From Acidobacteriota bacterium (GTDB lineage Bacteria; Acidobacteriota; Terriglobia; Terriglobales; SCQP01), in NCBI GenBank assembly GCA_027314025.1, contig DAHVCP010000050.1:5753-69752 (forward strand): a stretch of DNA of 64,000 nucleotides, given 5' to 3'. Made by a program: the position numbers and the translations under genes. Positions 9,486-64,000 of this stretch are shown one piece after another (position 1 is the stretch's first letter; each line of letters opens with the position of its first letter). The notes below the pieces were generated by a model, which was not told the DNA's origin, did not search any database, and saw only the letters and a list, made by a program, of their open reading frames with translations.

Positions 9486-10337
9486 TCAGCGCAGCCAGGC
9501 TTCCAACGCGGTGGCGGCGTCGGTGGAATCGTCGCGGTATTTGACGATCACGGGCGCGTACAGGGACAGACCCCACTCTGGCCCGCGGCCGCGGCGGACC
9601 GCGCGGCCCCCGGGCACCACGACCGCGCCGGCGGGAACGCGGAGTCCCTCGCCGGCCGCGGCGCGATGCACCTCGCCCCGCGGCAGGTCATACAGCGGCG
9701 TGGATCGCGTCAGCACGACGCCGGCCGCCAGCACCGCGCCGGCGCCGATATGGGCGCCTTCATAGATGCCGCAGTTGCCACCGACCAGAACATCATCTTC
9801 CACGATGACCGGAGCGGCGTTGACCGGCTCCAAAACGCCGCCGATTTGCGCCGCCGCGCTGAGATGCACCCGCCGGCCGATTTGGGCGCAGGAGCCGACC
9901 AGGGCGTGGGAGTCAATCATGCTGCCCGCGTCCACATAGGCGCCGATATTGATGTAACACGGCGGCATGCAGATGACGCCTGGGGCCAGGTAGGCGCCGT
10001 CGCGCACGCTGCTGCCTCCAGGAACCACACGCACGCCGTCGCCCAGACGCCAGTCCCGCAATGGCAGCGTGTCCTTATCGCAGTAGCGCAGCGGCCCGGC
10101 GGGAGGATATTCCGTGAGCTGGCCGAGCCGGAAGCCGAGCAGAATACCCTGCTTCACCCAGGCGTTGGTGCGCCACCCCTGGGCGGCGGGCTCGGCGGCG
10201 CGGACCTCCCCGGCATTGAGCGCGGCGCGCAGTGCGGCGAAGGCGGCTAGCGCTTCGGCGCGCTGCGCGCCCAGGTCGGGGATGGCGGCGAGCCGCTCCA
10301 CGGCGGCGGCCAGGGCGGCGGTGTCGGCCGGACTCAT
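9486..10337 (-). CDS. dapD: 2,3,4,5-tetrahydropyridine-2,6-dicarboxylate N-succinyltransferase
   Basis: Matches E. coli DapD blocks: WVKQGILLGFR, YINIGAYVD.G.M.D, LVGSCAQIG..VHLS, IGGVLEP. ATGA overlap with the dapA stop. Confidence 0.9.
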   Translation of the reverse strand: MSPADTAALAAAVERLAAIPDLGAQRAEALAAFAALRAALNAGEVRAAEPAAQGWRTNAWVKQGILLGFRLGQLTEYPPAGPLRYCDKDTLPLRDWRLGDGVRVVPGGSSVRDGAYLAPGVICMPPCYINIGAYVDAGSMIDSHALVGSCAQIGRRVHLSAAAQIGGVLEPVNAAPVIVEDDVLVGGNCGIYEGAHIGAGAVLAAGVVLTRSTPLYDLPRGEVHRAAAGEGLRVPAGAVVVPGGRAVRRGRGPEWGLSLYAPVIVKYRDDSTDAATALEAWLR

Positions 10338-11266
10338 GCGCGCGAGCCGCTGGCCCGCGGAGCATCCTCGCGGAGCAGGCCGAGCGCGTCAAGAATGCGG
10401 AAGAATTGCTCCCGGCGCGGGTTCTGCATGGGGGTCAGCGGCAGGCGGTAGACCTCCCGGCAATAGCCCATCGCCGCCAGCGCGGCCTTCACGGGGATGG
10501 GATTGGATTCCAGGAAATTGCCCTCCAGCAAGGGCAGGAGATGAAAATGCAGGCGCCGGGCGGAGGCGAAGTCGCCGCTGCGGGCCAAACGCATCAGCTC
10601 GGTCATCTCCGCCGGCATCTCATTGCTGGCGACGCTGATCACGCCGCGGCCGCCCAGCGCGACCACGGCCAGCGCCAGGGCGTCATCGCCGGACAGCACG
10701 GTGAAGCTGGGGGGCACGGCGGCCAGCACCGCCATGATTTGGTTCAGGTTGCCGGAGGCTTCCTTGACGCCGGCGATATTGGCGACCTGGGCCAGGCGGG
10801 CGACCGTTGCGGGCTCAATGTTGCTGGCGGTGCGGCCAGGCACGTTGTACAGCACCAGCGGGATCTGGATGGCGGCGGCGATGGCGGCGAAGTGCTGGTA
10901 CAGGCCCTCCTGGCTGGGCTTGTTGTAATACGGGGCGGCGGAAAGGATGCCGTCCACGCCCAGCGCCGCAACGTCGCGCGCTAGGGCGACGGTGGCGCGG
11001 GTGTTGTTGCCGCCGGCGCCGGCCAGCACGGGCACCTGGCGCTCGCCGCGCCGCGCTTCCTCGACGGCAATGGCCACCACGCGCAGGTGTTCCTCGCGGC
11101 TGAGGGTCGCGGTTTCTCCCGTGGTGCCGCCGGGAACCAGAAAGTCCACGCCTTCCGCGATTTGCCAGCGCAGAAACCGCCGCAGCGCGGATTCATCCAC
11201 CGCGCCGTCGGCGGTGAAGGGGGTAATCAAGGCGGTGCCGCAGCCCGTGAACGGAAATGCCATCAT
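10334..11266 (-). CDS. dapA: 4-hydroxy-tetrahydrodipicolinate synthase
   Basis: GCGTALITPF.., GTTGE..TLS.EEH, YNKP, LYNVPGRT. Start MMAFPF with a GAGGAC RBS. ATGA overlap with the dapB stop. Confidence 0.9.
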   Translation of the reverse strand: MMAFPFTGCGTALITPFTADGAVDESALRRFLRWQIAEGVDFLVPGGTTGETATLSREEHLRVVAIAVEEARRGERQVPVLAGAGGNNTRATVALARDVAALGVDGILSAAPYYNKPSQEGLYQHFAAIAAAIQIPLVLYNVPGRTASNIEPATVARLAQVANIAGVKEASGNLNQIMAVLAAVPPSFTVLSGDDALALAVVALGGRGVISVASNEMPAEMTELMRLARSGDFASARRLHFHLLPLLEGNFLESNPIPVKAALAAMGYCREVYRLPLTPMQNPRREQFFRILDALGLLREDAPRASGSRA

Positions 11267-11952
11267 TGTCCTCCCGCGGCCATGCGGCCCAGTTCCGGGG
11301 CGATGGCGTCGAATGCATGCAACCCCCGCCGGCCCAGGATCCACCGCGCCGCCAGCAGCGCCCCTTCGGCGAAGCCGCGGCGGGAACGGGCGGTATGGGT
11401 CAGGGTAATCGTGTCGGCGGCGGCGTCGAAACCGACGGTATGGGTGCCGGGAATGGTCCCGGCGCGCACGCTGCTGGCGGGCACGTTGGGCCGGCCCGCC
11501 GCCGCCAAAATCGCTTGCAGCCGCTTCGCCGTGCCGGATGGCGCGTCCTGTTTGTGGCGGTGATGGGCCTCGGTGATGAAGGCGTCATAGCTGCCGGGCA
11601 CGGCTTCCGCCGCCGCCGCCACGGTGCGGAAAAACGCCTGCATTCCGAGGGAAAAATTGGCGCCATGGACCGCGCCCACCGGCGCTTCCGCCACCAGGCG
11701 CTCCGCCGCGGGCAACTGCTCCAGCCAGCCGGTGACGCCAATGATCATGGGAATGCCGCCCGCCATGGCCCGCTCCAAGTTGCCCATCACCGCGCCGGCC
11801 ACGCTGAAGTCAATCGCCACCAAGCCCGGCGTCCAGCCGGCGCGCCAGTCGGCCGCGCCGCGCACGATGTGCGCCACGCGGTGGCCCTGCTCCCGCGCCA
11901 CCTCCTCGACACAGCGATTCATTCGGCCGTAGCCGATCAAGATCAAGTCCAT
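11263..11952 (-). CDS. dapB: 4-hydroxy-tetrahydrodipicolinate reductase
   Basis: DapB signature EAHHRHKQDAPSGTA. Start trimmed to MDLILIGYGRMN (ATG at 11950-11952). Confidence 0.9.
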   Translation of the reverse strand: MDLILIGYGRMNRCVEEVAREQGHRVAHIVRGAADWRAGWTPGLVAIDFSVAGAVMGNLERAMAGGIPMIIGVTGWLEQLPAAERLVAEAPVGAVHGANFSLGMQAFFRTVAAAAEAVPGSYDAFITEAHHRHKQDAPSGTAKRLQAILAAAGRPNVPASSVRAGTIPGTHTVGFDAAADTITLTHTARSRRGFAEGALLAARWILGRRGLHAFDAIAPELGRMAAGGQ

Positions 11953-12039
11953 GCGATCAACGGCGATGGCGGTAGTGTACCCTGGCGCGCGGTGATCGCG
12001 CCGCCGCCAGGCTGCAACCGCCGGGCCGCGCCTGCGGGG

Positions 12040-12140
12040 CCCCGGTCCAGCCGGGCGCGGAAGCGGCGCTCCGCGCTGCGCCAATCAGAGCGGGACGCCC
12101 CGCCAGCGGCGGGGCTGGGGCCCGCGCCCACCGATGACGA
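12040..12140 (+). repeat. Dispersed GC-rich intergenic repeat, family 1
   Basis: Contains ..AAGCGGCGCTCCGCGCTGCGCCAATCAGAGCGGGACGCCCCGCCAGCGGCGGGGCTGGGGCCCGCGCCCACCGAT. Confidence 0.8.
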
Positions 12141-14747: not shown

Positions 14748-15932
14748 TTATAGAATGCCCTGTTCCCGCGCTACCCGCGCCAAAATGTCCAGCGCCTGCG
14801 TCAGTTCCTCGCGCGTGTGCGTGGCGGTGACGATGGTCCGCAGCCGCGCTTTGCCCTCGGGAACGGTGGGGAAGGCGATGCCGGTGGCCAGCAATCCCGC
14901 TTGAAACAGCGCCGCGGAGAAGGCCATGGCCTTGCGCCCCTCGCCCACCATGATCGGCGTGATCGGTGTCTCGCTGGCTCCAGTGTTGAAGTCGAGCTGC
15001 TGCAAGCCGGTCTTGAAAAACCGCGTGTTGTCCCACAAGCGCTCGATGCGTTCCGGTTCGTCTTCCAGCACCTGAAACGCCGCCAGGCAGGTGGCCGCCA
15101 CAGAGGGCGGGTGGGAGGTGGAAAACAAAAACGGCCGGCCGCGGTGGTACAGAAACTCGATCAGTTCCCGCCGCCCGCAAACATAACCGCCCAGTGCTCC
15201 CACGGCCTTGGACAGCGTGCCCACTTGCACGTCCACCCGGCCGTGCAAGCCAAAATGATCCACCGTGCCACGGCCGTTTTTGCCCAGCACGCCGGAGGCG
15301 TGGGCGTCGTCCACCATCATGATGGCGCCGTATTTCTCCGCCAAATCGCAGAGCTGGGGCAGCGGGGCGATATCGCCGTCCATGCTGAAAACGCCGTCGG
15401 TGATCAGCAGCTTCCGGCCCGGCTGGCCGGCGACTTCCTTCAGCCGCGCTTCCGCCGCGGCGACATCGCGGTGGGGGAAGACCTTGATGGTGGCGCGGGA
15501 GAGGCGCGCGCCGTCAATGATGCTGGCGTGGTTCAGCTCGTCGGAGATGATGAAATCCTCGCGCCCTAGGATGGCGCTGACCGTGCCGGCGTTGGCGGTG
15601 AACCCGCTCTGGAACACCACCGCGGCTTCGGTGTGCTTAAAGGCCGCGATTTTGGCCTCCAGCTCCATATGGATGGCCATGGTGCCGGAGATGGTGCGCA
15701 CCGCTCCCGAGCCCACGCCCTCGCGGTCCAGCGCCTGATGGGCCGCCTGCCGCAGGCGGGGATGGGTGGTCAGGCCGAGATAGTTGTTGGAGCTGAGATT
15801 GATGACGCGGCGGCCGTCGAAGATGGAGATGGGTTTCTGTTCGCCCTCCAACACCCGCAGGCGGAAGCGCAGGCCCTTGCTCTCCAGTGCGGCCAGCTCA
15901 TCGGCCAAATATTGCAATTGTGGACGGGACAT
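14748..15932 (-). CDS. kbl: Glycine C-acetyltransferase (2-amino-3-ketobutyrate CoA ligase)
   Basis: PLP-dependent family motifs: NNYLGL, SGFTANAG, DDAHASG, GTLSKA. Start trimmed to MSRPQLQYL (ATG 15930-15932). Confidence 0.9.
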   Translation of the reverse strand: MSRPQLQYLADELAALESKGLRFRLRVLEGEQKPISIFDGRRVINLSSNNYLGLTTHPRLRQAAHQALDREGVGSGAVRTISGTMAIHMELEAKIAAFKHTEAAVVFQSGFTANAGTVSAILGREDFIISDELNHASIIDGARLSRATIKVFPHRDVAAAEARLKEVAGQPGRKLLITDGVFSMDGDIAPLPQLCDLAEKYGAIMMVDDAHASGVLGKNGRGTVDHFGLHGRVDVQVGTLSKAVGALGGYVCGRRELIEFLYHRGRPFLFSTSHPPSVAATCLAAFQVLEDEPERIERLWDNTRFFKTGLQQLDFNTGASETPITPIMVGEGRKAMAFSAALFQAGLLATGIAFPTVPEGKARLRTIVTATHTREELTQALDILARVAREQGIL

Positions 15933-15948
15933 AATCTCGGGGCGGGCC

Positions 15949-16995
15949 TCAGGCGGGACGTTGGCCGTCGGGATATAACAGCACCTTGGCGGCGGCGCCG
16001 CTGCGCAGTTCCTCCATCGCTTGCGCAAAGCTGGCCAGCGGCAGGCGGTGCGTGAACAGCGGCTCAAGCTGAAGGCGGCCCGCGCGCAGCAGCGCCTGCA
16101 TTTGATACCAGGTTTCGAACATGCGCCGGCCATGGATGCCCTGCACCGTGAGGCCCTTCAAGATGATCTGATTGCCCAAATCCAATTCCATGGGGGTGGC
16201 GGGAATGCCCAGCAAACTGACCCGGGCGCCGGGACGCGCCAGCGCGAACGCGGTGCGGACGCCGTCGGCGTGGCCGGAAAACTCCAGGACCACGTCGGCG
16301 CCGCCGCCCTCGGTCTGGTCGGCGATTTCCTCCACCGCCCGCGCTTGCCGCGGGTCCAGCGCCACATCCGCGCCCATTTGCCGCGCCAGCGCGCGGCGGT
16401 GTTCGTTGATCTCCATGGCGAAGATCGGCCCGGCGCCCACCGCCCGCGCCACGGCGATGCCCATCAGCCCGATCGGCCCGCAGCCGACCACGGCCACGCT
16501 GCGCGCCGCGATTTCCCCGGCCAGCACGGTATGCACGGCGTTGCCCAGCGGATCGAGAATGGCGCCATATTCGGCGGGCACCGCGGGGTCCAGCTTCCAA
16601 AGATTGCTCTCCGGAATGCGGACGAATTCGGCGAAGCAGCCATCGGCATCCACGCCCAAAATGTGCAGCGACCGGCAAACGTGCGCCTGGCCGGTGCGGC
16701 ATTGCAGGCAGCGCCCGCAGGCGATGTGCATCTCGGCGCTAACGGCTTCGCCCGGCCGCGCCGACTGCACCTCCGCGCCGATTTTCTCCACCACGCCGCA
16801 GAACTCATGGCCGAAGGTCAAGGGCGGCCGCAGCCGCCGCCGCGACCAATCGTCCCACTCGTAAATGTGCAGATCGGTGCCGCAGATCGAGGCCATCCGC
16901 ACCCGCACCAACACGTCCCGCGGACCCAACTCCGGCACGGGTACGGAGCGAATTTCCGCTCCCGGCGCCGGGCTAGGTTTGACCAGGGCTTGCAT
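15949..16995 (-). CDS. tdh: L-threonine 3-dehydrogenase
   Basis: Zn-ADH fold: ICGTDLHIYEWD, GHEFCG, CGRCLQCRTG, GCGPIG. Adjacent to kbl, the classic tdh-kbl pair. Confidence 0.9.
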   Translation of the reverse strand: MQALVKPSPAPGAEIRSVPVPELGPRDVLVRVRMASICGTDLHIYEWDDWSRRRLRPPLTFGHEFCGVVEKIGAEVQSARPGEAVSAEMHIACGRCLQCRTGQAHVCRSLHILGVDADGCFAEFVRIPESNLWKLDPAVPAEYGAILDPLGNAVHTVLAGEIAARSVAVVGCGPIGLMGIAVARAVGAGPIFAMEINEHRRALARQMGADVALDPRQARAVEEIADQTEGGGADVVLEFSGHADGVRTAFALARPGARVSLLGIPATPMELDLGNQIILKGLTVQGIHGRRMFETWYQMQALLRAGRLQLEPLFTHRLPLASFAQAMEELRSGAAAKVLLYPDGQRPA

Positions 16996-17409
16996 AGGAA
17001 ATGAGCCGGTAGCAACCGACTTTTGATGCTAACAGGTTTGCCTTTCCCCGGCCCTACGCCGCCGCCCTGCCGTCCGGTTGGTGGGGCCTAACGTCCGCGC
17101 CGACGCTCGGCGGGGCGCGCCCGCGCGCGCCTCGCGCCAGGTGCGACGGCGTCAGCCCGTAACACGCCGCGCGCCGCCGCCATGCCGCGGCGTTGCGGCC
17201 GCCCCCGCTGTTTGGCGGCACGCCGCGCTACCCCGCGCAGCCGGTTGATCTACCATGGCGGAGTCAGTGGCTGGGTAGGGCGTTAGGCCGGCGGGCGAGT
17301 CCGTCTGGCTTGCGGCGCCCGGCGGACGCCGCACCAGGGCCGCCACACCAACGCCCGCCCCACCGACGCGATCACAGCAAAACGATCACACCAGGGCCAC
17401 CGCACCAAC

Positions 17410-22469: not shown

Positions 22470-22728
22470 CGGCCCTGCCCGATGCGGCCGCCGCGCTTCC
22501 GGCCGTACCCGTTACCGGCGGTCGAAGCGGCCCCTGCCACTCGCGGGCGGCCGCGCCTTTTCCCCCGGGGCAAAGCAGGTGCGGGCAGGCCGCCGCATGA
22601 AAGAACGCCGCGGCTCGCCCCGCGCGCGTAAGCCAGGGCAACGCCCCGCGCCGATGAAAGCCGCGCTCCGCGCCAATTAAAGCGGGACGCCCCTCCGCAG
22701 GCGCGGCTGGGGCCCGCGCTGATCAACG
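22470..22728 (+). repeat. Dispersed GC-rich intergenic repeat, family 1 (long form)
   Basis: ..GCGCGCGTAAGCC..CGCGCTCCGCGCCAATTAAAGCGGGACGCCCCTCCGCAGGCGCGGCTGGGGCCCGCGCTGATCAA. The upstream arm resembles the arms at 34830 and 43700. Confidence 0.7.
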
Positions 22729-34829: not shown

Positions 34830-35072
34830 TGCTCTGCGCCACGCCCCGTTCGGGGGGCAGGTCCATCTCGCGGGGGCCGCGCCCTTTGCCCGTGGAGCAA
34901 ACCGGGCGCGGGAAGGCTGCGAAATCCCGCGGGGCGGCCCGCCCAAGGCAAGGGAAGCGGCGCGACCCCCGGCGACGCGTCGGCTGGGCCGGGGCGAACG
35001 GGGTCCCCGGCCCAGCCAGCCGCGCAAGCGGGACGCCCGGCGAAGCCGCGCTGAGGCCCGCGCCCATCAACG
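34830..35072 (+). repeat. Dispersed GC-rich intergenic repeat, family 1 (long form)
   Basis: ..GCCGCGCCCTTTGCCCGTGGAGCAAACCGGGCGCGGGAAGGCTGCGAAATCCCGCGG....GCGCAAGCGGGACGCCCGGCGAAGCCGCGCTGAGGCCCGCGCCCATCAA. Confidence 0.7.
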
Positions 35073-35148: not shown

Positions 35149-36987
35149 ATGCGGGCCTTCCCGCAATGTTTTTGGGGCCCGGGCCCCGCCGCGCGCCTGA
35201 AGCGCCCCAGCTCAAGCCCGGGCGCTGCGGTTTCCATCGCGCCGGAACTGCTGCGCACCGCCGCCTATTGGGCGATGCTTGGAGCCGCGGCGCTGGCCGC
35301 CAGCCCGCCGGGCGCGCATTTCAGCGTGCTGATCCGGGGCGGCGAAATCATTGATGGCAGCGGCGGGCGCGCGTATCGCGCCGACATCGGCATCCGCCAC
35401 GGACGGATCGCCGCGATCGGCAACCTCCAGAACGCCCGGGCTGCAACCGTCATTGATGCCCGGGGGTTGGTGGTGGCTCCAGGCTTCATTGACATGCTTT
35501 CCCATTCCGACGCCGCGTTGCTGCGCAACGGCGGCTGTTGCAGCAAGATCTATGAAGGCGTCACCACCGAGGTGCTGGGCGAGACCGCCTCGGTGGCTAC
35601 CGCGGGCCCCTTGGCCGGCGTCGCGCTGCGCCAACAGCGGCGCCTATTTGCCGCGCAAGGCGTATCCGTGAAATGGCGCCGGTTGCGCGGCTATTTTCAG
35701 CGCTTACAGCGCCAAGGCATTCGCCTCAACGTCGCCAGCTACGCTACTTTCGGCTGCATTCGGGAGTCGGTGATGGGCATGTCCAGTTCCGTGCCCACGC
35801 CGGCGCAGTTGGCGGCGGAGCAAGCGATGATGGCCCAAGCCATGCGCGATGGGGCGCTGGGCTTGGCCACGGCGTTCAGCTACGTGCCGGACATTTTTGC
35901 CCGCGATCCGGAAGTGATCGCGGTGGCCCGCGTGGCGGGGAGATATGGCGGCATCTACGCCACCCACGTCCGCGGACTGGGGAACATCAACGCCGGAGGC
36001 ATTCAAGAGGCGATTCGCATTGCCCGCGCCGCGCGCTTGCCGCTGCACATCTTTCACCTCCAGGTGGACCGCAATGACGGCCGGCAAGCTGCCAGCCGGG
36101 CTCTCGGTTGGATCGAGCGCGCCCGGCGCCAGGGCCTGCGCGTCACCGCCGATGCCTACCCCTACCGCGCCGCCGACAACTCCGCCGCTTCCATGGTGCC
36201 GGCGCGGTTTCGCGCCGGGGGCGCCTCCGCCCTGCTGCGCCGCCTCGCCAACCCGCGGCTCCGGGCGGAGATCGTGCGCGGCATCGCCGCCTCCGCCCGC
36301 CGCTTCGGCACGCGCCGCGATCCCGCCGGCTGGCGGCAGGAATATGTCATCTCGATTGCGCGGCCCAGCGACCGCCGCGATCTCGGCAAGAACTTCCAGA
36401 TCCTGGGCATGATGATGCGCCTGCCGCCGGCCCAGGCCGTGGCCCGGCTGTTGCGGCGCGAGGGCGGCAGCTTTGGCCGCATGTTTTTCAACAAGAGCGC
36501 CGCGTCGGTACGGCAGATCATCGCCGCGCCGTTCGTCAGCATTGGCGGCGACGCGATTGACGCCGACATGGCGGACAACGATGGCTATGCCGTCCCCCAT
36601 CCGCGCTACTTTGGCGCCGAAGCGCGGATTCTGGTGTGGGCGCGGGAGAAGCGATTTAGCCTGGCGGAGGCGGTGCACAAGATGACCGGCCTGGCGGCGC
36701 ATAGCTTGCAGCTGCGCGGCCGCGGGTTCATTCGCCGCGGCTACGCGGCGGACGTGGCGATCTTCAATCCCCGCACGGTGCAGGACCACGCCACCTACGC
36801 GCATCCCTGGCGCTACGCCAGCGGCGTCGCGGACGTTCTCGTCAACGGCGTGCCGGTGCTGCTGCATGGCCGCGTGACCGGCGCCCGGCCGGGCCAGGTG
36901 CTCCACGGTCCGGGCTGGCGCCATGGATGGCGAATGGGATCCCCCAGCCAGGCGCGTAAGCGGGACGCCCCGCCGCAGGCGGGCTAG
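35149..36987 (+). CDS. N-acyl-D-amino-acid deacylase (D-aminoacylase) family amidohydrolase; start uncertain
   Basis: LIRGGEIIDGSG..ADIGIRHGRIAAIG..VIDARGLVVAPGFIDMLSHSD and a C-terminal ..ADVAIFNP... The last 11 codons lie in a family-1 repeat. Confidence 0.8.
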   Translation: MRAFPQCFWGPGPAARLKRPSSSPGAAVSIAPELLRTAAYWAMLGAAALAASPPGAHFSVLIRGGEIIDGSGGRAYRADIGIRHGRIAAIGNLQNARAATVIDARGLVVAPGFIDMLSHSDAALLRNGGCCSKIYEGVTTEVLGETASVATAGPLAGVALRQQRRLFAAQGVSVKWRRLRGYFQRLQRQGIRLNVASYATFGCIRESVMGMSSSVPTPAQLAAEQAMMAQAMRDGALGLATAFSYVPDIFARDPEVIAVARVAGRYGGIYATHVRGLGNINAGGIQEAIRIARAARLPLHIFHLQVDRNDGRQAASRALGWIERARRQGLRVTADAYPYRAADNSAASMVPARFRAGGASALLRRLANPRLRAEIVRGIAASARRFGTRRDPAGWRQEYVISIARPSDRRDLGKNFQILGMMMRLPPAQAVARLLRREGGSFGRMFFNKSAASVRQIIAAPFVSIGGDAIDADMADNDGYAVPHPRYFGAEARILVWAREKRFSLAEAVHKMTGLAAHSLQLRGRGFIRRGYAADVAIFNPRTVQDHATYAHPWRYASGVADVLVNGVPVLLHGRVTGARPGQVLHGPGWRHGWRMGSPSQARKRDAPPQAG

Positions 36988-37012
36988 GGCCCGCGCCTAT
37001 CATTGAGCCAGG
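36950..37012 (+). repeat. Dispersed repeat, family 1 (short form), overlapping the stop codons of both convergent genes
   Basis: GGCGCGTAAGCGGGACGCCCCGCCGCAGGCGGGCTAGGGCCCGCGCCTATCATTGAG. Confidence 0.8.
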
Positions 37013-43594: not shown

Positions 43595-43810
43595 GGAGCG
43601 TTTACTGGCGCGGGCCCCAGCCCCGCCTGCGGCGGAGCGCCCCGCTTTGATGGGCGCGGGGCGTCGCCGCCCCGCTTAGGCGCTGCCGGGGGCTGCGCCG
43701 CCTCCTTTGCCCGGGGCAGGCCGCGGCGTGCCTGTGCGCGCCGCGCGGGCGCTGGAATTTCCGCGGCCTTCCCGCGACCGCTTTGCGCGTCGGGGCAAAA
43801 GCCGGGCCTG
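43595..43810 (-). repeat. Dispersed repeat, family 1 (long form, inverted orientation)
   Basis: The reverse complement reads ..CGCCTAAGCGGGGCGGCGACGCCCCGCGCCCATCAAAGCGGGGCGCTCCGCCGCAGGCGGGGCTGGGGCCCGCGCCAGTAAA. Confidence 0.7.
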
Positions 43811-47523: not shown

Positions 47524-47690
47524 AGGGTCGCGCCGTTTGCACCTGGGCAATGCCGGCGGGAAACGGCCGCACAATTCCGCGGGACGGCCCGCCCCCGGCC
47601 CTGCCTGGCGCGTAAGCGGCGCTCCGCGCCGCGCCAATTCAAGCGGGACGCCCCGCCGCAGGCGGGGCTGGGCCCGCGCCCATCAATTTT
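47524..47690 (+). repeat. Dispersed repeat, family 1 (near-consensus long form)
   Basis: GGGTCGCGCCGTTTGCACCTGGGC....GGCGCGTAAGCGGCGCTCCGCGCCGCGCCAATTCAAGCGGGACGCCCCGCCGCAGGCGGGGCTGGGCCCGCGCCCATCAAT. Confidence 0.8.
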
Positions 47691-48304
47691 GTCCGCTGAC
47701 GAGTTTCGGGCCGGGCGCCGCCAGGCCGGCGCGCGACACGCCCTGGACGCCGAGCCGCCCGAGCAACGTTACGACGCGGCTGGGGTCGCCCAGATCCGTC
47801 CAGCGGAGTTTCGCGCAGTGGAGCACGAGCAGGTGAGATGGACAAGCCGCGAGGACTTCCCCGGAAAAGCTCGGCGCGGGAATGCTGGCGTACAGTTTGC
47901 GCAAGGCGCCGCGCCCCGTCGCGGCGATTCCGGGCGGCAGCACGGATTCGAACGATTCCAGGAGACCGGGAACGGTCCGCCGGATCAACGGTGGGAAAGC
48001 CGACACGCGGCCGACCATGATGAAGCTGTTCCACAGGCAGCCCCGCTCCATCATCAGGGACGCGACTGGCCGAGGCGGTTTCTCGGACACTTGGACGACG
48101 CGGTGGATCGGACTGAGGGACGTGCTCGCCACGAGAGCGCCGGGTTCGAACCAGGTTCTGGGCGGCCGAACTCCAACCGAGCGCGGCGAGCCGGCTCCGA
48201 GCGACGAGGCTCTCGCGCTGTTTGCGCCGGATAACCCGCTGCTCCCGCAAAAGAACACCGAGCGCGCGTTCGCTTGTGAACAGCGCTGGGCCGCATGGAC
48301 TCAT
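47683..48304 (-). pseudogene. Truncated and probably frameshifted mannose-1-phosphate guanylyltransferase-like nucleotidyltransferase remnant
   Basis: The 191-aa frame has ..VGVRPPRTWFEPG..VVQVSEKPPRPVASLMMERGCLWNSFIMV..RWTDLGDPSRV, collinear with the middle and C-terminal blocks of ManC-type enzymes. The GxGxR N-terminal domain is absent. A second frame (..EQRVIRRKQRESLVARSRLAALG) weakly resembles the EPxGRNTAPAIALAAL block. Confidence 0.4.
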
Positions 48305-48337: not shown

Positions 48338-49090
48338 ATGTCATTTCACCCGTTCACTCCGAAACCCCTAGCGGCGCTGGCAATGCTGGTGGCGCTGGGA
48401 CTGTTCGCGGGCACGCCCCCGGCCCACGCACAGCAAACCACTCCCCCCAACCAAGACCAGGCGCAGAGCCAGAATCAGGCAGCGACCCCGGTGACGGCTA
48501 CCGGGTGCCTGCAATCCCCCAATTCCAACGTGTATTCGCTGACCGACCAGTCCAGCGACACGACCTATACCCTGACTAGCAGCAGCGTGGACCTGAGCAC
48601 CCATGTGGGCCACACCGTGACCGTCACCGGCACGCCGGTGTCGCCGAGCGCTAACAACGGCATGGCGGATAGCAGCAGCATGGCTGCGGATCAGGCTCCT
48701 GCGGCGACCGAGCCGCTCGAAGTCAGCAGCCTGACCATGGTGAGCACCACTTGCGGTTCCGCGTCGGCAACCGCTGCCGGGACAACGGCGACGGCGACGG
48801 CGGACAACAGCGCGGGCGATGCGACGGCTACCCCAGCGGCGGGCCCGAACGACGGGACGGCGCAGGCGGCAAGTCCGGCCACGACGCCGGCGGCTGACGC
48901 GGCTACGCCACAGGAAAGCGACAACGGCGCTGCAACGGCTACCCCAGCGGCGGCCGATTCCGGCACGGCACAGGCAGGGGCTAATAGCCTGCCCAAGACC
49001 GCCGGAGATCTGCCACTTCTCTCGTTGTTGGGCCTGCTGGTATCGGGAGCTGGATTGGGCATGCTTCTGCTGGTGAAAAGGCTGGCGTAA
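48338..49090 (+). CDS. Secreted Thr/Ala/Ser-rich protein with C-terminal sortase sorting signal (LPKTAG + TM + KR)
   Basis: Signal peptide ..LFAGTPPAHAQQ. The C-terminus is LPKTAGDLPLLSLLGLLVSGAGLGMLLLVKRLA. Confidence 0.7.
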   Translation: MSFHPFTPKPLAALAMLVALGLFAGTPPAHAQQTTPPNQDQAQSQNQAATPVTATGCLQSPNSNVYSLTDQSSDTTYTLTSSSVDLSTHVGHTVTVTGTPVSPSANNGMADSSSMAADQAPAATEPLEVSSLTMVSTTCGSASATAAGTTATATADNSAGDATATPAAGPNDGTAQAASPATTPAADAATPQESDNGAATATPAAADSGTAQAGANSLPKTAGDLPLLSLLGLLVSGAGLGMLLLVKRLA

Positions 49091-49471
49091 GCGTCCCTCC
49101 GTCTCCGTCTCGCCCGGCAAAGCGAGTTCGCGCCGGGTGAGGCGAGACCGACCAGTGTTCACTATTGGACAGACTCGTTCTTCCCCTCGGGATCGCGTTG
49201 CGGTATGCGAGCACAAGCAGCGCGGCAGCAGACGCTGCGAGGAAATGAAGGTGTCGATGCGCAAAAATGCTTGCTGGCGCATTCTGTGCGGCGCTCTTCG
49301 GCGCCCTTTGCCTGCCGAACGCGCGAGCGGACCAGTGCGCGGCGCAGCCGCGCTGGGGCCCGCGCCAGTCATTCGCCTCACCCGGTGCGGGAGACCGCTC
49401 CGGGTGAGTCTCTGTTCGCGGGCGGGCCAGTGTGGACTCCGCACTGCCGCCGCCGGGAGGCACGGAGCTTA

Positions 49472-50098
49472 ATGTCGCGCAGATCCGTTCTTGTCTTGTC
49501 CGGGCGGCTGCTTATCGCCGCAGGCATGCTGGCGCTGCTCACTGCCGGATTTTTCTATTTGCAGTCGGCGCTGTTTCAGAGCGCGAGCAACCGCGCATTC
49601 GACCGTCTGCGGGCGGCGCGCCGCTCGCCAGCAGCAAGCCAGCTGACGGCGGCCCCGGATTCCGGGAGCCGCGCGGCGCGGAATGCGGCTCGCGTGCCTA
49701 CCGGCGCGGAGGTGGGCCGGATCCAGATTCCCTCCCTGCATCTCTCAGCCATCATTCTGCAAGGGACGGGCGCGGGCACGCTGCGCCTCGCCGTGGGGCA
49801 TTATCCCAGCAGCGCGCTGCCCGGCGCAGGCGGGAATGTCGTGCTGGCGGGCCACCGCGACACCTTCTTTCGCCCCCTGCGCCATATTCGGCGCGGCGAC
49901 CAGATCATCCTGGAAACGCCGCGCGCCACCGTGGACTATCGCGTCGAAACCACCGCCGTGGTCAGCCCCAGCGACGTGGCGGTATTGGCGCCCACTGCGG
50001 GCAATATTTTGACGCTGGTGACCTGTTATCCGTTCTATTACATCGGACCGGCGCCGCACCGGTTTATCGTGCGGGCGACGCTTGTGCCGCGGCCTTGA
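49472..50098 (+). CDS. Sortase (transpeptidase), membrane anchored
   Basis: N-terminal TM helix, catalytic His in VVLAGHRDT, the TLVTCYPF (TLxTC) Cys motif, and a downstream Arg (RFIVRA). Start MSRRSVL with a GGAG RBS. Confidence 0.85.
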   Translation: MSRRSVLVLSGRLLIAAGMLALLTAGFFYLQSALFQSASNRAFDRLRAARRSPAASQLTAAPDSGSRAARNAARVPTGAEVGRIQIPSLHLSAIILQGTGAGTLRLAVGHYPSSALPGAGGNVVLAGHRDTFFRPLRHIRRGDQIILETPRATVDYRVETTAVVSPSDVAVLAPTAGNILTLVTCYPFYYIGPAPHRFIVRATLVPRP

Positions 50099-50124: not shown

Positions 50125-50240
50125 ATGGCCGGTCGCGGGGCCCCCGGCCCAGCCTGGCGCGTAAGCGGCGCTCCGCGCCGCGCCAATTAAGGCGGGATGC
50201 CCCGCCGCAGCCGCGCTGCGGCCTGCGCCAGTCAATCGGA
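50125..50240 (+). repeat. Dispersed repeat, family 1
   Basis: ..GGCGCGTAAGCGGCGCTCCGCGCCGCGCCAATTAAGGCGGGATGCCCCGCCGCAGCCGCGCTGCGGCCTGCGCCAGTCAAT. Confidence 0.8.
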
Positions 50241-54115: not shown

Positions 54116-54350
54116 CGCGCAGCGCGACCGTTCGCACGCCGCAAGCAGGCACGCCCGCGTTGCGGGGCGGCGGGATTCTCCAGCGTTGCGGGGAACTCTG
54201 TGCCAAAGCCTGGTAGGGCTCCGGCCCTGTGTTCGCGCCAATATTGTGTGGGCGTCCCGCCAATGGCGCGACCGTCGCCATCTGGGCGGCGGAAACCGAC
54301 CGCCGGGACGGCTATCCTGCCTTTCGCCGCGCCTAGGGCTGCGGTTGGGC

Positions 54351-54396
54351 GGCCGCGGGCTAAAGCCCGCGCCACACAGGCTGAAGCCTATTCCAC
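54351..54396 (-). repeat. Short dispersed repeat, family 2 (inverted copy)
   Basis: GGCCGCGGGCTAAAGCCCGCGCCACACAGGCTGAAGCCTATTCCAC is the reverse complement of the 2027 and 63923 motif. Confidence 0.7.
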
Positions 54397-54465
54397 GCGC
54401 CCGGTCAGGCCAAGCTGCTGAAGCCGGCGGCCGGGCGCCCGGCGTGGGATAACCCGGAGCGCCGG

Positions 54466-55099: not shown

Positions 55100-55395
55100 C
55101 TACTCGCGTGCGGTTGGATGAGAGCCGCTGAATGCAAGTTGGCCGCTCGCCGGGCCGCGCCTCTCGCCCGGGCAAAGCGGGAGCGGAAAGGCCGCGATGC
55201 TCCCGGCGACCCCTTGGCGCGCGGGGGCCGGGCGGCCCGCCGAAGCAAGCAGTGCGGCGCGGCCCCCAGCGATGCGCCGACTGGGCTGGGGCGAACGGGG
55301 CCCCGCCCCAGCCGGCGCGCAAGCGGCGCACCGCGCCGCGCCGATCCAAGCGGGATGCCCCGCCTTGACGGGGCTGGGGCCCGCGCCATTCAATG
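55100..55395 (+). repeat. Dispersed repeat, family 1 (long form)
   Basis: ..GGCGCGCAAGCGGCGCACCGCGCCGCGCCGATCCAAGCGGGATGCCCCGCCTTGACGGGGCTGGGGCCCGCGCCATTCAAT. Confidence 0.75.
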
Positions 55396-55445
55396 TTGCT
55401 TGCGTTCGCTGGGAACAATGCGGCGTAATCTGCGTAGAAGAGCAA

Positions 55446-57896: not shown

Positions 57897-58306
57897 CCGC
57901 AATCGCGCTCGGGCTTGATTGCGTCTCGCCAGCGGCGCGCCGTTCGCCCGGTGGGGACGAGCCGTCCGCGCCCCCGGGAAAGCGTTAATTTCCCGGCGCG
58001 GGTCGAGCCTTCCGCCGCAGGCGGAGAATAAATCTGCGGCGCCAACCCCGGCTTACGGCGCAGCGAAGGTGGAATAGCCGCCTCGGCTGGCGGACCGATG
58101 TTCCTCCGGCAAGGCCGACCGCAGCTCGCTGGGCGCCCGCATTCCCCGCCAATGCCGCCGCGGCTGACACGGGGGCGCGGGCCGCCGGTCCGTCCGTGGG
58201 GCGGCCCCCGGGGCTCGGCCCGGGGCAGCCGACGCCCGGAGGGACGAGGGCACGAGGGGCCCGCGGCCTTGAGGTCGCGGCCCTTTTTGGGGTAGCGTCT
58301 GGTGGG

Positions 58307-58744
58307 ATGAGCCCGAGCGTTGCCCGCCTGACCCTGTTCGCGCTGATCTCCGCGGTCGAGGAGGACCTGCGGCGGCTAATGCTGCTGCACCTAGGGCACC
58401 TGGACCCTCCGCGCGTGCTGCCACCCGAAATTCTCCGAAACGCGGCTGACCGCCTCGCGGGGGAGGGGGCCCGCGGGCACGCGCCGCCCAGCCTCCGCGA
58501 GCTGGCACCCTACCTTGACTTCGCGGATGCCTACAAGGTCCTGAACGCGTCTGGCGCCCACCTCCCCGCGCCCCTGTCCGCGCACCTGAGATCGCTGACC
58601 GAGTCCCTGGACGCGATCGCGCCCGTCCGCAACCGTGTGATGCACGGCCGCCCGCTCGAGGGCCGACCTTTGCGAGGGCCTTGCCGACAGCAGGGAACCG
58701 CGCTGGGATTCCGTTGGCGCTGCGCTGGGCCGGCTCAGGGCTGA
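58307..58744 (+). CDS. Fragment 1: Swt1-like HEPN domain
   Basis: ..LDAIAPVRNRVMHGRPLE carries the Rx4H HEPN motif. After ~58660 this frame becomes Arg/Gly/Pro-rich and meaningless, while frame 0 continues sensibly (ADLCEGLADSREPRWDSVGAALGRLRADPSYVLGL..). Confidence 0.7.
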   Translation: MSPSVARLTLFALISAVEEDLRRLMLLHLGHLDPPRVLPPEILRNAADRLAGEGARGHAPPSLRELAPYLDFADAYKVLNASGAHLPAPLSAHLRSLTESLDAIAPVRNRVMHGRPLEGRPLRGPCRQQGTALGFRWRCAGPAQG

Positions 58745-59789
58745 CCCCAGCTACGTGCTCGGGCTTACCATACCGGACGGGCGTGCGGAAAAGGGCGGCG
58801 ACCGGCACAACCTGCCGCAGCCGGACTTCGACGAAACCGGGTTCGTTGGCCGGAGGGAGGAGGCGCGTGCGGTCCTGAGCCAATGTCTGGGTACCTACCC
58901 GGTGGTTACAGTTCTCGGCGAAGGCGGGCTCGGGAAGACGGCACTGGCGCTGAAGGTAGCCTACGAACTGCTGGACCAGTCCGAGCAGAGGTTCGAGTCG
59001 ATCATCTGGGCCACCTCGAAGAGCAGCCAACTCACTGGCTCCGAGGTGGTCACGATCCGCGACTCGATCAAAACATCGCTCGGGCTGTTCGGCGAGGTCG
59101 CAGCCAGGCTTGCGGGCGCGAGGTTCGAGGACGCCGTGAACGAGGTGCTCGAGTACATGGAGGAGTTCCGGGTTCTCGTCGTTTTGGACAACCTCGAGAC
59201 GGTCGTCGACGAGCGGGTGAGGTCCTTCCTAGGGCGGCTTCCTGCCGGCGGCAAGGTTCTGATAACCTCGCGGGTCGGCCTGGGCGCCTTCGAGTACCCG
59301 TACAGGCTCAGGCCGATGGACGGGCGCGAGGCAGCGCAATTGCTGCGAGCAACCGCTGAGGCGAGGGGGATCGCCGACCTGTCGGGGGCCTCGTCGGAGC
59401 GTCTCCTGGGCTACTGCCGCCGCATGCACGACAACCCCGGATTCATAAAATGGTTCGTCTCCGCCGTCCAGGCTGGGAGGCGCCCGGAAGAGGTGTTGAG
59501 CAACCCGGCTACCTTCCTCAATTTTTGCATGCAAAACGTCTACGAGTACATCTCCGGCGAGGGGAGGGCGATTCTCAGGGCCATGCTGGCTGCGCCCGGC
59601 TACCAGAGCCAGGCCGGACTCTGCTTCCTCACCGAGCTCGGGGTCGACGACTTGCAGCGCGGGCTCCAGCAACTGCTCACGACCAATATGGCGGTAATGT
59701 CCGTGCAGGCGGGGGCCGCTGCCCACGAGACGCTCTACTCCCTCGCCGAGCTGCCGAGGGCCTACGTGACAAGGCACCATCCCCCTTAG
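58641..59789 (+). CDS. Fragment 2: NB-ARC/STAND P-loop NTPase module
   Basis: FVGRREE..VVTVLGEGGLGKTALA (Walker A), FRVLVVLDNLE (Walker B), VLITSR. Open in frame 0 from 58641. Confidence 0.75.
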   Translation, partial: CTAARSRADLCEGLADSREPRWDSVGAALGRLRADPSYVLGLTIPDGRAEKGGDRHNLPQPDFDETGFVGRREEARAVLSQCLGTYPVVTVLGEGGLGKTALALKVAYELLDQSEQRFESIIWATSKSSQLTGSEVVTIRDSIKTSLGLFGEVAARLAGARFEDAVNEVLEYMEEFRVLVVLDNLETVVDERVRSFLGRLPAGGKVLITSRVGLGAFEYPYRLRPMDGREAAQLLRATAEARGIADLSGASSERLLGYCRRMHDNPGFIKWFVSAVQAGRRPEEVLSNPATFLNFCMQNVYEYISGEGRAILRAMLAAPGYQSQAGLCFLTELGVDDLQRGLQQLLTTNMAVMSVQAGAAAHETLYSLAELPRAYVTRHHPP

Positions 59790-60849
59790 CCGCGCGGACC
59801 ACGCAAGGCTAACGAAGCGCTGGAGGCAGCTCGTCGCTGCGGCCGAGCAGGTGTCGGCGCCCGGCGAGTCCCGCAGGTACGCCTTGCAAAGTATCGCCGT
59901 CCGCTCCCGGGGCGACAGGCTGATCGCGCGGTACCTCATGGACGCCCTCGACTGCATCCGCTGCGGCCGCCTCGATGAGGCCGACCGCCACATCGGGAGG
60001 GCGCGCGAGCTCGCGCCAGGGTTTTTCGAGGTGCGCAGGATCGAGGCCCTGCTAAGGGTCGAGGAGGCGAATTACGTGGCGGCACGGGATTGCTACGAAG
60101 CTGCGCTCGACCTCGAGCCCAGGCACGCTCCGCTCCGGCTATTTTTCGCAAAGTTCCTGCTCCGACACCTGAGCGACGAGGATGGCGCTCTCGGTCAGCT
60201 GCGCGAGGCGCTCAAGCTGGACCCCGGCGCGACCGAGCTCCTGCTTGAGGCCGCGCGGGTAAATCTCTACCTCTCAAATTTCGAGGAGGCGAGGAGGGCG
60301 CTGGACGGCCTGATGGAGCGGGAGAACGCCGCCACCCCGTGGGAGCGGCGGAAGCTTCTCGATCTAGACCTCCAATACCACTCGCGGCTGGCCGAGCGGG
60401 AGTTGGCGGAGCACGACGCCGCCGGCGCCCTCACGCACCTCAAGCGCTTGCGTGCCTCTTACGAGCGGATCCCCGAGGCCTCGAGGGACGAAAAGACGGC
60501 CAAAACGGTCTCAAAAGTCCTGCCCACGGCCGCGTCCTGCCACTCCCGGCTTGAAGGGACCCTTCGCGCCGCAGCGCTCGAGTTTTGGGAGTGGCTCGCG
60601 GAAACAGCCGGCCGCCCCCGTCTCCCGGCATCGGAAGGGACTTTATCCGGGACCGTTGTGAGGCTGCTGGGGAGCTACGGTTTCCTTACGACCGACGACG
60701 GGGCTGAGCTTTACTTTGCTGCGCCGCTGGACCGCCCCGTCGAGGTCGGGGACCGCGTGACCTTCGCGCTCGGGAGCAACTCCGTCGGCCCGTGCGCGCA
60801 GAACGTCCAGCGCTCCGTGCAGGGGATGCCGCGCAGTCCGCAAACCTAA
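59770..60849 (+). CDS. Fragment 3: TPR array + cold-shock-like OB domain
   Basis: TPR-like helices (..ARDCYEAALDLEPRHAPLRLFFAKFLL..). The C-terminal GTVVRLLGSYGFLTTDDGAELYFAAP..VEVGDRVTFAL..GPCAQNV parallels CspA (GxVKWF..GFGFI.PDDG..DVFVH...G..V.F....GP.A.NV). Open in frame 1 from 59770. Confidence 0.7.
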   Translation, partial: QGTIPLSRADHARLTKRWRQLVAAAEQVSAPGESRRYALQSIAVRSRGDRLIARYLMDALDCIRCGRLDEADRHIGRARELAPGFFEVRRIEALLRVEEANYVAARDCYEAALDLEPRHAPLRLFFAKFLLRHLSDEDGALGQLREALKLDPGATELLLEAARVNLYLSNFEEARRALDGLMERENAATPWERRKLLDLDLQYHSRLAERELAEHDAAGALTHLKRLRASYERIPEASRDEKTAKTVSKVLPTAASCHSRLEGTLRAAALEFWEWLAETAGRPRLPASEGTLSGTVVRLLGSYGFLTTDDGAELYFAAPLDRPVEVGDRVTFALGSNSVGPCAQNVQRSVQGMPRSPQT

Positions 60850-60944
60850 ACCTTGGGCGGGGTTCAACCGCCGCGGCGTGGCCGTGCCCGTCCGGGGCCC
60901 TGGCGATAGAATGATTGTCATAACCGCTCGCTGGGGCACCCGCC

Positions 60945-61598
60945 ATGCGCACTGCCGAATTCGCCGCTTCTCCCGCCGCCGCCCGGCTCAGCCTGCGGCT
61001 TCCGGTGCCGGAAGAGGGCGCGCTACGGCTGCCGGCTGAGTTGCTCCCGTCCAGCGACCAGGAACTGCTCGCCCTGTGCGCCGAGAATCCCGGCTTGCGG
61101 ATTGAACGGGAAGCTGGTGGAGAATGGATCGTGATGCCGCCCACCGGTGGTTACTCGGGCCATTGGGGAATTCGCGTCGCCGCACAGTTGCAGAATTGGG
61201 CCGACCGCGACGGCTCCGGCGTCGCCTTCGATTCCAGCACCGGCTTCCGCCTCCCAGGCGGTCTCGCCCTGCGCGCCCCCGACGCCGCCTGGGTGCGCCG
61301 CGACCGCCTCATGGCCCTCAGCGAGCGCGAGCGCCGCGGCTTTTTGCCGCTCTGCCCAGACTTTCTGATCGAGATCGCCTCGCCCAGCGACCGCCGCGCC
61401 GACCTCGATGCCAAGATGGCCGAGTACCGCGCCTCCGGCCTGCGGCTCGGCTGGCTGATCCTCCCCGATTCCCGCAGCGTCGAAATCTGGACCCCCACGG
61501 AGACGACGGTCCTGGCGGCGCCCGCTACGATCTCCGCCGACCCGCTGTTGTCCGGCTTCGTGCTCGACCTCGCCGCCATCTGGCAGCCGCCATTCTAG
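60945..61598 (+). CDS. Uma2-family (DUF820) PD-(D/E)xK endonuclease
   Basis: ..RIEREAGGEWIVMPPTG..H.....A.L..W......G.AFDSSTGFRLP.....APDAAWV..PDFLIEIASPSD.....KM.EY...G...GWLI.P. matches the Uma2 layout. Confidence 0.8.
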   Translation: MRTAEFAASPAAARLSLRLPVPEEGALRLPAELLPSSDQELLALCAENPGLRIEREAGGEWIVMPPTGGYSGHWGIRVAAQLQNWADRDGSGVAFDSSTGFRLPGGLALRAPDAAWVRRDRLMALSERERRGFLPLCPDFLIEIASPSDRRADLDAKMAEYRASGLRLGWLILPDSRSVEIWTPTETTVLAAPATISADPLLSGFVLDLAAIWQPPF

Positions 61599-63760: not shown

Positions 63761-63922
63761 GGCCGGCAGTGTAGCAGCGTGCCGGGCGCCGCACCGGTCC
63801 CGAGATGGGTTCCTCCGCTCGCAGCCCGGAAGGTGCGCGCGGTCGGCGGCCGCCCGGCGCGCAACGTGGGCAATGCCTCCGGCTTGCGTGCGGTCGCGCT
63901 CGGCGCGGCCAGGGCCGGCTGC

Positions 63923-63965
63923 GTGGAATGGGCTTCAGCCCGTGTGCCGCGGGCATCAGCCCGCA
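63923..63965 (+). repeat. Short dispersed repeat, family 2
   Basis: GTGGAATGGGCTTCAGCCCGTGTGCCGCGGGCATCAGCCCGC, near-identical to 2027-2070. Confidence 0.75.
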
Positions 63966-64000
63966 GCCGCCGCGGCGTCAGCTCCAGCCGTAAGCGTAGC

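Follow-up and report, generated by a model that had tools for sequence, protein, structure and literature searches.

The STAND gene at 58307-60849 (+ strand) of a 64,000-nucleotide (nt) stretch of Acidobacteriota DNA (GCA_027314025.1, contig DAHVCP010000050.1; the whole stretch is referred to here as the window) is very probably a recently inactivated pseudogene of a single-gene HEPN-STAND-TPR-CSD protein, broken by two real mutations and located in a slot that undergoes turnover. Translation of the open reading frames (ORFs) showed that its coding signal passes through three successive frames. The first starts at ATG 58307 (MSPSVARL...) and is meaningful as far as ...RNRVMHGRPLE, with E118 at 58658-58660. 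The second, in phase with 58641 and open from that position, carries ADLCEGLADSREPRW...AYVTRHHPP and ends at a TAG stop (59787-59789), while the third, in phase with 59770 and open from there, carries LSRADHARLTKRWRQL... and ends at a stop codon at 60847-60849. The G+C content at third codon positions is 0.83-0.84 in pieces two and three, and that of the whole window is about 68%. An earlier, sequence-only reading of this DNA had described the same three frames, and the translations bear out its coordinates and its frame arithmetic, including a net +1 at both switches; the GGG (58660-58662) and CCCCC (59781-59785) to which it attached them are indeed present. The residues it quoted as LSRADHARLTEAWRQL contain a transcription slip, TEAW having been put for TKRW. 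The parts of the gene, all on the + strand, are as follows; L001 is a related metagenome contig (OFHJ01011405.1).

58307-58660, +: STAND segment 1 (residues 1-118), N-terminal Swt1-like HEPN, from the translation and from the homologue and L001 alignments
58628-58645, +: HEPN catalytic Rx4H motif R-N-R-V-M-H, intact, with the deletion 5 codons downstream
58660/58661, +: lesion 1, junction of the 20-nt deletion, from the DNA alignment with L001
58661-58744, +: out-of-frame tail of segment 1, GRPLRGPCRQQGTALGFRWRCAGPAQG and a stop (TGA 58742-58744), 27 unrelated residues
58662-59783, +: STAND segment 2 (residues 119-492), end of the HEPN, linker, NB-ARC NTPase and winged-helix region, to ...TRHHP
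58917-58940, +: Walker A GEGGLGKT, within the NB-ARC of segment 2
59175-59198, +: Walker B VVLDNLE, within the NB-ARC of segment 2
59781-59785, +: lesion 2, CCCCC run, likeliest site of a 1-nt insertion (C4 to C5), followed by the frame-0 TAG at 59787-59789
59785-60849, +: STAND segment 3 (residues 493-846 and the stop), helical linker, TPR and C-terminal cold-shock/OB domain
about 59926-60408, +: TPR repeats (Pfam TPR_19)
about 60649-60813, +: C-terminal cold-shock/OB domain, from a weak Pfam CSD match and from the family profile against CspB

Removal of one base at each junction gives a repaired product of 846 amino acids (aa), for which we found more than 400 one-piece homologues, all single ORFs and typically 850-870 aa long; the best is 46% identical over 99% coverage and about 856 aa long. 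An alignment of the window protein with 20 homologues runs collinearly across both junctions, from Met1 as far as the C-terminal OB domain, so that the repaired frames match intact homologues end to end, as the sequence-only reading would have them do. The domain order of the family is a Swt1-like HEPN, an NB-ARC STAND NTPase, TPR and a cold-shock domain. Invariant in the 21 sequences are the Walker A GEGGLGKT, the Walker B LDNLE and the motif R-N-R-x-x-H-x-R-P-L, with R108, R110 and H113 of the Rx4H and, in the NTPase, G206, G207, G209, K210, T211 and D294-E297.

Pfam matches on the repaired product were NB-ARC (2.6e-8, above the cut-off), AAA_16, TPR_19 (8.8e-9) and a weak CSD (0.07). Taken member by member, NB-ARC and TPR were found in all 21 sequences, CSD in 19 of them (best 6e-14) and HEPN_Swt1 in 14 (best E 1.9e-4). 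The HEPN_Swt1 match of the intact L001 protein (0.031) falls below the Pfam cut-off, and the repaired window protein, which still lacks seven residues at the first junction (see below), has no HEPN_Swt1 match in Pfam. The family profile also matched the CspB cold-shock structures in the PDB (about 1e-8). An AlphaFold (AF2) model of one homologue, P0001 (mean predicted local distance difference test score 83), had as its best structural matches in Foldseek the STAND-TPR protein 6mfv, plant NLR resistosomes, CED-4 and SAMD9. The two intact homologues that we examined are stand-alone genes in unrelated neighbourhoods. On a separate contig (L002, OBLW0100065969.1, 1280-1400), a 49%-identical family member shows a frame change near residue 35 of its HEPN, which could be a second independent pseudogene or an error in a single contig.

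The sequence-only reading had attributed both interruptions to +1 shifts at homopolymer runs. This holds at most for the second; the first is a 20-nt deletion rather than a +1 slip at GGG. L001 (1926 nt) is 89.5% identical at the nucleotide level to 58136-59616 of the window and reads through junction 1 in a single frame (...RNRVMHGRPLEVDDFPRVADFCESLAGSKEPHW...). Compared to L001, exactly 20 nt (GTCGACGACTTTCCGAGGGT) are missing from the window between 58660 and 58661, and this is the sole gap within the coding part of the DNA alignment. A loss of 20 nt has the same effect on the frame as one extra base, and therefore the +1 model seemed to fit. The GGG carries no evidential weight, since runs of at least three are present in 99.5% of 101-nt windows of this sequence.

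The deletion takes out seven codons (VDDFPRV in L001, FDDLAxT in the family consensus) and shifts the frame. Indeed, the window protein has a seven-residue gap directly after RPL relative to all 20 homologues (consensus RPLxFDDLAxTLD...), among which we saw no length variation at this point, and the out-of-frame tail that follows segment 1 has no counterpart among the homologues in the protein alignment. The lost residues include D122, an aspartate close to the HEPN Rx4H and invariant in 30 sequences. In the P0001 model they (residues 120-126) form the loop after the Rx4H helix and the first turns of the helix at 122-136. We also scored repaired variants against a profile hidden Markov model built from the 20 distant homologues alone: restoring the 20 nt gave 1071.3 bits, versus 1047.6 for the best single-base removal, a gain of 23.7.

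Two other origins for this junction were examined and discarded. One was a 16-nt duplication, of which the 8-nt direct repeat CGAGGGCC (at 58657 and at 58673, a spacing of 16 nt) might have been the mark; what lies between the two copies is present only once, however, and the comparison with L001 reveals a deletion. Nor is a clean microhomology the cause of the deletion: the junction has just 1 ambiguous nt, and imperfect repeats near it in L001 are spaced by 17-18 nt, not 20.

The second junction is of a different type. The second and third frames overlap solely across 59770-59789, leaving a permissible interval of 20 nt; the conserved HHP needs the second frame, and the third must hold before the TAG. 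With the family profile, removal of one base anywhere in 59780-59787 scored best (1047.6-1048.8 bits), removal further upstream scored lower, and models with a 2-nt insertion reached at most 1045.1 bits. The repaired protein shows no length difference across this junction compared to 19 of the 20 homologues. The interval 59780-59787 holds CCCCC (59781-59785) and TT (59786-59787). Among random 20-nt windows of the same DNA, just 3.8% contain a run of at least five, and the coincidence of C5, the sole such run in the interval, with junction 2 is therefore beyond what chance would give. Judged from sequence, junction 2 is most probably one extra base, a C4 to C5 change by replication slippage.

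We looked up exact proteins of the Uma2 gene and of the NB-ARC ORF, and retrieved the same locus in five assemblies:

L003, NCBI metagenome-assembled genome (MAG) GCA_027314005.1 (a TPA MAG): 100% identical to the window
L004, NCBI MAG GCA_027314945.1: 2 single-nucleotide polymorphisms (SNPs) relative to the window
L005, Logan assembly of SRR10333329: identical to the window
L006, Logan assembly of SRR13766253: 2 SNPs relative to the window, at other sites than those of L004
L007, ENA ERZ27237090, contig k141: 19 SNPs in 3701 nt relative to the window

Both lesions are present in all five, which align to the window over 3.7-13 kb with 0 gaps and have the same sequence at both junctions. Between them they cover four haplotypes and three pipelines (SPAdes-style NODE names, MEGAHIT k141 and Logan), and derive from at least three independent data sets. 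Names of the SPAdes style that include coverage values are also found in related MAGs from that TPA series, an indication of short-read data; a literature search on the sample and assembly accessions returned nothing.

These observations contradict sequencing or assembly error, the first of three explanations offered by the sequence-only reading, according to which the gene would be intact in the organism and both frame breaks would be indel errors. The coincidence of the second break with the C5 run, and the fact that the locus comes from a MAG and is known from assemblies rather than reads, would speak for such an artefact. Against it, the two lesions are the same across different pipelines and haplotypes, and a 20-nt deletion is unlike a homopolymer miscall. 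Moreover, the window holds 156 runs of at least five, 10 of them in the STAND gene, and some 25 other large genes have full-length Pfam domain matches, in agreement with the earlier observation that they read through uninterrupted; since they do so despite these 156 runs, indel error is very unlikely. We regard an artefact as extremely improbable.

A second explanation, slippage-based on/off switching, fares no better. Here slipped-strand mispairing at mononucleotide runs would toggle a costly defence gene, and junction 2 does lie within a C run; phase-variable defence and restriction genes occur in other bacteria. However, a 20-nt deletion that takes with it seven conserved codons and an invariant Asp is irrecoverable by slippage, the tract is just 5 nt long and is one of 10 in the gene and of 156 in the window, and its length is constant: the run-length polymorphism among variants that the sequence-only reading had proposed to look for was not seen, all five assemblies and four haplotypes having C5. 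Phase variation is thus no more credible here than an artefact.

The third explanation, recent pseudogenization of a defence-type gene, is the one supported by the recurrence of the lesions and by the near-neutral SNPs that followed them. Over 436 codons, the window and L001 differ with dS 0.167 and dN 0.042 (Nei-Gojobori), a dN/dS of 0.25; for the stretch that has since fallen out of frame, the ratio is 0.18. Purifying selection therefore acted on the gene during most of the period that separates the two lineages. The copies of the gene in the window and in L007, both of which bear the lesions, differ by 12 SNPs, 8 nonsynonymous and 4 synonymous, with a pN/pS of 0.70 that is indistinguishable from 1 (p=0.52). 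The SNPs that arose after the lesions are compatible with neutrality, and their direction is that predicted for a pseudogene. We saw no further stops or indels accumulated in the correct frames of the STAND gene, suggesting that its inactivation is recent.

That the STAND gene is being lost, not mis-assembled, is borne out independently by turnover of the slot in relatives. A BLAST comparison of nine related loci (L008-L016) with the window delimited the slot:

57912-60898: variable segment, flanked by the ADOP permease gene (to 57896) and the Uma2 gene (from 60945)

The relatives are about 91-95% identical to the window in the flanks and keep the order ADOP permease, variable slot, Uma2. In L008-L011, L013 and L014 (from JGI and Logan samples), the slot contains a rearranged STAND remnant, much further decayed than the window copy: homology to the window ends at 57911 and restarts at 60517, and the remnant consists of about 130 nt of the STAND 5' leader (L001 387-514), an inverted 157-nt TPR piece (window 60103-60259) and the last 330 nt of the gene. 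At L008 9239-9970 it is called as a 228-aa ORF with no Pfam match, almost certainly spurious. In L012 (7657-7941) and L015 (1301-1586) the slot is empty, with a spacer of about 286 nt and no STAND sequence. L016 (6909-9951) has a different 3.0-kb insert on the other strand, which encodes a 586-aa AAA_21 ATPase, with similarity in PADLOC to AriA (8e-14), GajA and HEC-01A, and a partner of no known type. Variation of this kind at one slot is a defence hotspot pattern.

The permease flanking the slot has MacB_PCD/FtsX domains, twice. On its other side, the Uma2-family endonuclease gene (60945-61598, +) has a match (E about 1e-7) to PDC-S03, the candidate-defence models of PADLOC, and many contigs (a 14-member cluster) conserve it with an identity of at least 90%. 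In L001, the upstream neighbour (1-411) differs from that of the window and there is no ADOP permease, from which it follows that the STAND gene sits in another genomic context in that lineage.

Might the broken locus still function? One way would be as three polypeptides, a 145-aa HEPN, a 344-aa NB-ARC and a 303-332-aa TPR-CSD, or through +1 ribosomal frameshifting, for example of tRNA-Pro on the CCC_C at 59781-59784; slippage of tRNA-Pro by +1 does occur on CCC_C. Three ORFs are called in every assembly, and the correct frames have kept all invariant residues without gaining more stops or indels, all of which would suit a functional split. However, the homologues examined are all single ORFs, with neither a conserved split nor a programmed shift, whereas the window copy has its domains spread over three frames with two lesions. 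At most, the locus could yield a HEPN fragment of 145 aa that ends in a nonsense tail, an NTPase of 344 aa (from GTG 58755) and a TPR-CSD piece of 303-332 aa; the first ORF lacks the HEPN helix after the catalytic motif, and about 31 conserved residues before GTG 58755 and about 22 before GTG 59851 have no start codon and would be untranslatable. The neutral-looking pN/pS since the lesions and the deletion of most of the gene in a sister lineage also speak against function, which we consider very unlikely. Even less probable, by a little, is the more specific proposal that the locus is kept alive by a low level of tRNA-Pro slipping +1 on CCC_C or by reinitiation (either of which could give an NTPase-TPR-CSD product without a working HEPN, perhaps a decoy or regulator), or as a three-ORF split STAND system; if true, a leaky or split product would explain why the gene is otherwise pristine. 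A programmed +1 shift of the prfB type was rejected: there is no conserved two-frame organization, the homologues being single ORFs at both junctions and L001 being in frame at junction 1. Even in sum, these alternatives (phase variation, an artefact, and a functional split or a leaky +1 frameshift) are unlikely.

Several points nevertheless weigh against the locus being a pseudogene broken by two real mutations. Only 12 SNPs separate the two lesion-bearing copies compared, so that power is low, and a dN/dS of 0.25 is rejected for them at p=0.07 only. Bar its two lesions, the gene is pristine and has kept all family-invariant residues, and a split gene still under selection would look alike. 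The evidence for the lesions comes from assembled contigs, not raw reads, and some of the five assemblies may share read sets, L003 and L005 being identical in sequence. At junction 2, one T too many in the TT (59786-59787) would fit as well as an extra C. No close relative spans this junction, and we therefore infer the ancestral C4 state: L001 stops at residue 443, before it is reached, and a search with the C-terminal 416 aa gave the window's own ORFs alone. A scan of genome contigs with the STAND protein also gave no close relative, and the third ORF, looked up as an exact product of 332 aa, had no match because gene callers chose a different start. Lastly, the defence role of the family is suggested by domain architecture, by PMC3710099 and by the hotspot context, and PADLOC gave no significant match.

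By analogy with STAND proteins of the Avs/NLR type, we propose that the intact ancestor was held in an autoinhibited state by its TPR/CSD sensor part. A trigger, possibly RNA, would bind the TPR/CSD, and ligand binding would lead to NTPase-driven oligomerization and unleash the HEPN RNase. In the window lineage, two mutations have become fixed in the population: the 20-nt deletion at 58660/58661, removing seven codons after the Rx4H and shifting the frame, and the insertion of 1 nt within 59780-59787, for which replication slippage from C4 to C5 is the most probable origin. The HEPN effector is thereby structurally damaged and the protein cut into three untranslatable or truncated pieces.

A few other features of the window deserve mention. 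The sequence-only reading had also pointed to a truncated nucleotidyltransferase remnant at 47683-48304. This receives weak support from the ORF at 47683-48258 (-, 191 aa), which matches residues 160-269 of the mannose-1-phosphate guanylyltransferase 2x5s in the PDB (E=1.3e-4), but none from Pfam, where the minus-strand ORFs of 47639-48304 gave no match; if it is such a remnant, the ORF fits a second decayed gene in the window. Further frameshifts were considered at two overlapping same-strand ORF pairs and rejected: 9486-12084 holds separate dapD, dapA and dapB genes, each with its own domains, and 14748-17028 separate aminotransferase and alcohol dehydrogenase genes, also with their own domains.

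The gene at 48338-49090 (+) encodes a low-complexity, Ala/Thr-rich secreted protein ending in LPKTAG and a hydrophobic tail, an LPXTG-like sorting signal, and the next gene (49205-50098, +) encodes a sortase-domain protein (Pfam Sortase 1.9e-32). This pairing is unusual in an Acidobacteria genome in which a heptosyltransferase is encoded as well. Intergenic repeats of about 95 nt form a family with at least eight copies in the window, at 82-91% identity, and others in related MAGs; the family could be REP- (repetitive extragenic palindromic) or MITE-like (miniature inverted-repeat transposable element). One copy of a second short repeat fills the 'empty' ADOP-Uma2 spacer of L012 and L015.

47591-47687: copy of the repeat of about 95 nt
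50140-50236: copy of the same repeat
12040-12130: copy of the same repeat
55301-55398: copy of the same repeat
22664-22726: copy of the same repeat
43607-43683 (-): copy of the same repeat
36958-37002: copy of the same repeat
35025-35070: copy of the same repeat
63851-64000: copy of the second short repeat
2009-2069: copy of the second short repeat
54348-54404 (-): copy of the second short repeat
L012 7778-7912: copy of the second short repeat
L015 1423-1555: copy of the second short repeat

For annotation, our data imply that 58307-60849 should be recorded as one HEPN-STAND-TPR-CSD pseudogene, rather than as three genes, and left as it is instead of being 'corrected' for a supposed assembly error. 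More broadly, they provide a decay series in uncultured Acidobacteria: the L001 allele, intact at least over the first 443 residues, which are those recovered, the lightly broken copy of the window, the rearranged remnant, the empty slot and the slot with a different ATPase cassette. The series illustrates the rapid turnover of STAND immune genes and leaves our understanding of such genes unchanged.

The closest known family is that described by Anantharaman et al. in 2013 (PMC3710099), whose Table 1 lists Swt1-like HEPN domains fused to 'STAND-ATPase, TPR, S1', with Npun_F6454, MED222_16016 and Desac_1927 as examples; the same paper mentions HEPN-STAND proteins with C-terminal cold-shock-like OB folds, is the source of the Rx4-6H definition of the HEPN motif used here, and predicted the family to be an RNA-targeting immune sensor. 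The gene in the window has the HEPN Rx4H motif, a STAND (NB-ARC) NTPase with Walker A and B, TPR and a C-terminal OB fold, and resembles the family in being stand-alone, with no conserved partners; it differs in being disrupted by the 20-nt deletion and the 1-nt insertion. Our searches found no experimental characterization of the family and no curated model for it: neither PADLOC nor NCBIfam has one that names a HEPN-STAND-TPR-CSD family, and PADLOC matched the repaired protein only with TRIP13 and mad8 (E 3e-3 to 7e-3, nothing significant) and P0001 only with CSD_V and TPR-CSD fragments. An intact homologue would be a reasonable target for study.

The likeness to Avs and bacterial NLR-like proteins is one of layout, and holds by analogy: the intact protein would consist of three parts, a nuclease-type effector at the N-terminus, a STAND NTPase in the centre and a repeat sensor at the C-terminus. 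The NTPase-TPR fold matches the STAND/NLR/CED-4 structures 6mfv, Sr35 and ZAR1, and the gene occupies a variable slot that in a related genome holds an AriA/GajA-like ATPase cassette. In contrast to Avs and bNACHT systems, no Avs1-5 or bNACHT model of PADLOC matched at E<=0.1, and unlike Avs, the gene has an NTPase of the NB-ARC type and an extra C-terminal cold-shock domain. It differs from phase-variable loci in its short C5 tract of constant length and in its irreversible 20-nt deletion. Compared to ordinary small-indel pseudogenes and to the turnover of defence islands, the locus is no different in kind; its sole notable feature is that several stages in the decay of one gene could be recovered from public metagenomes.

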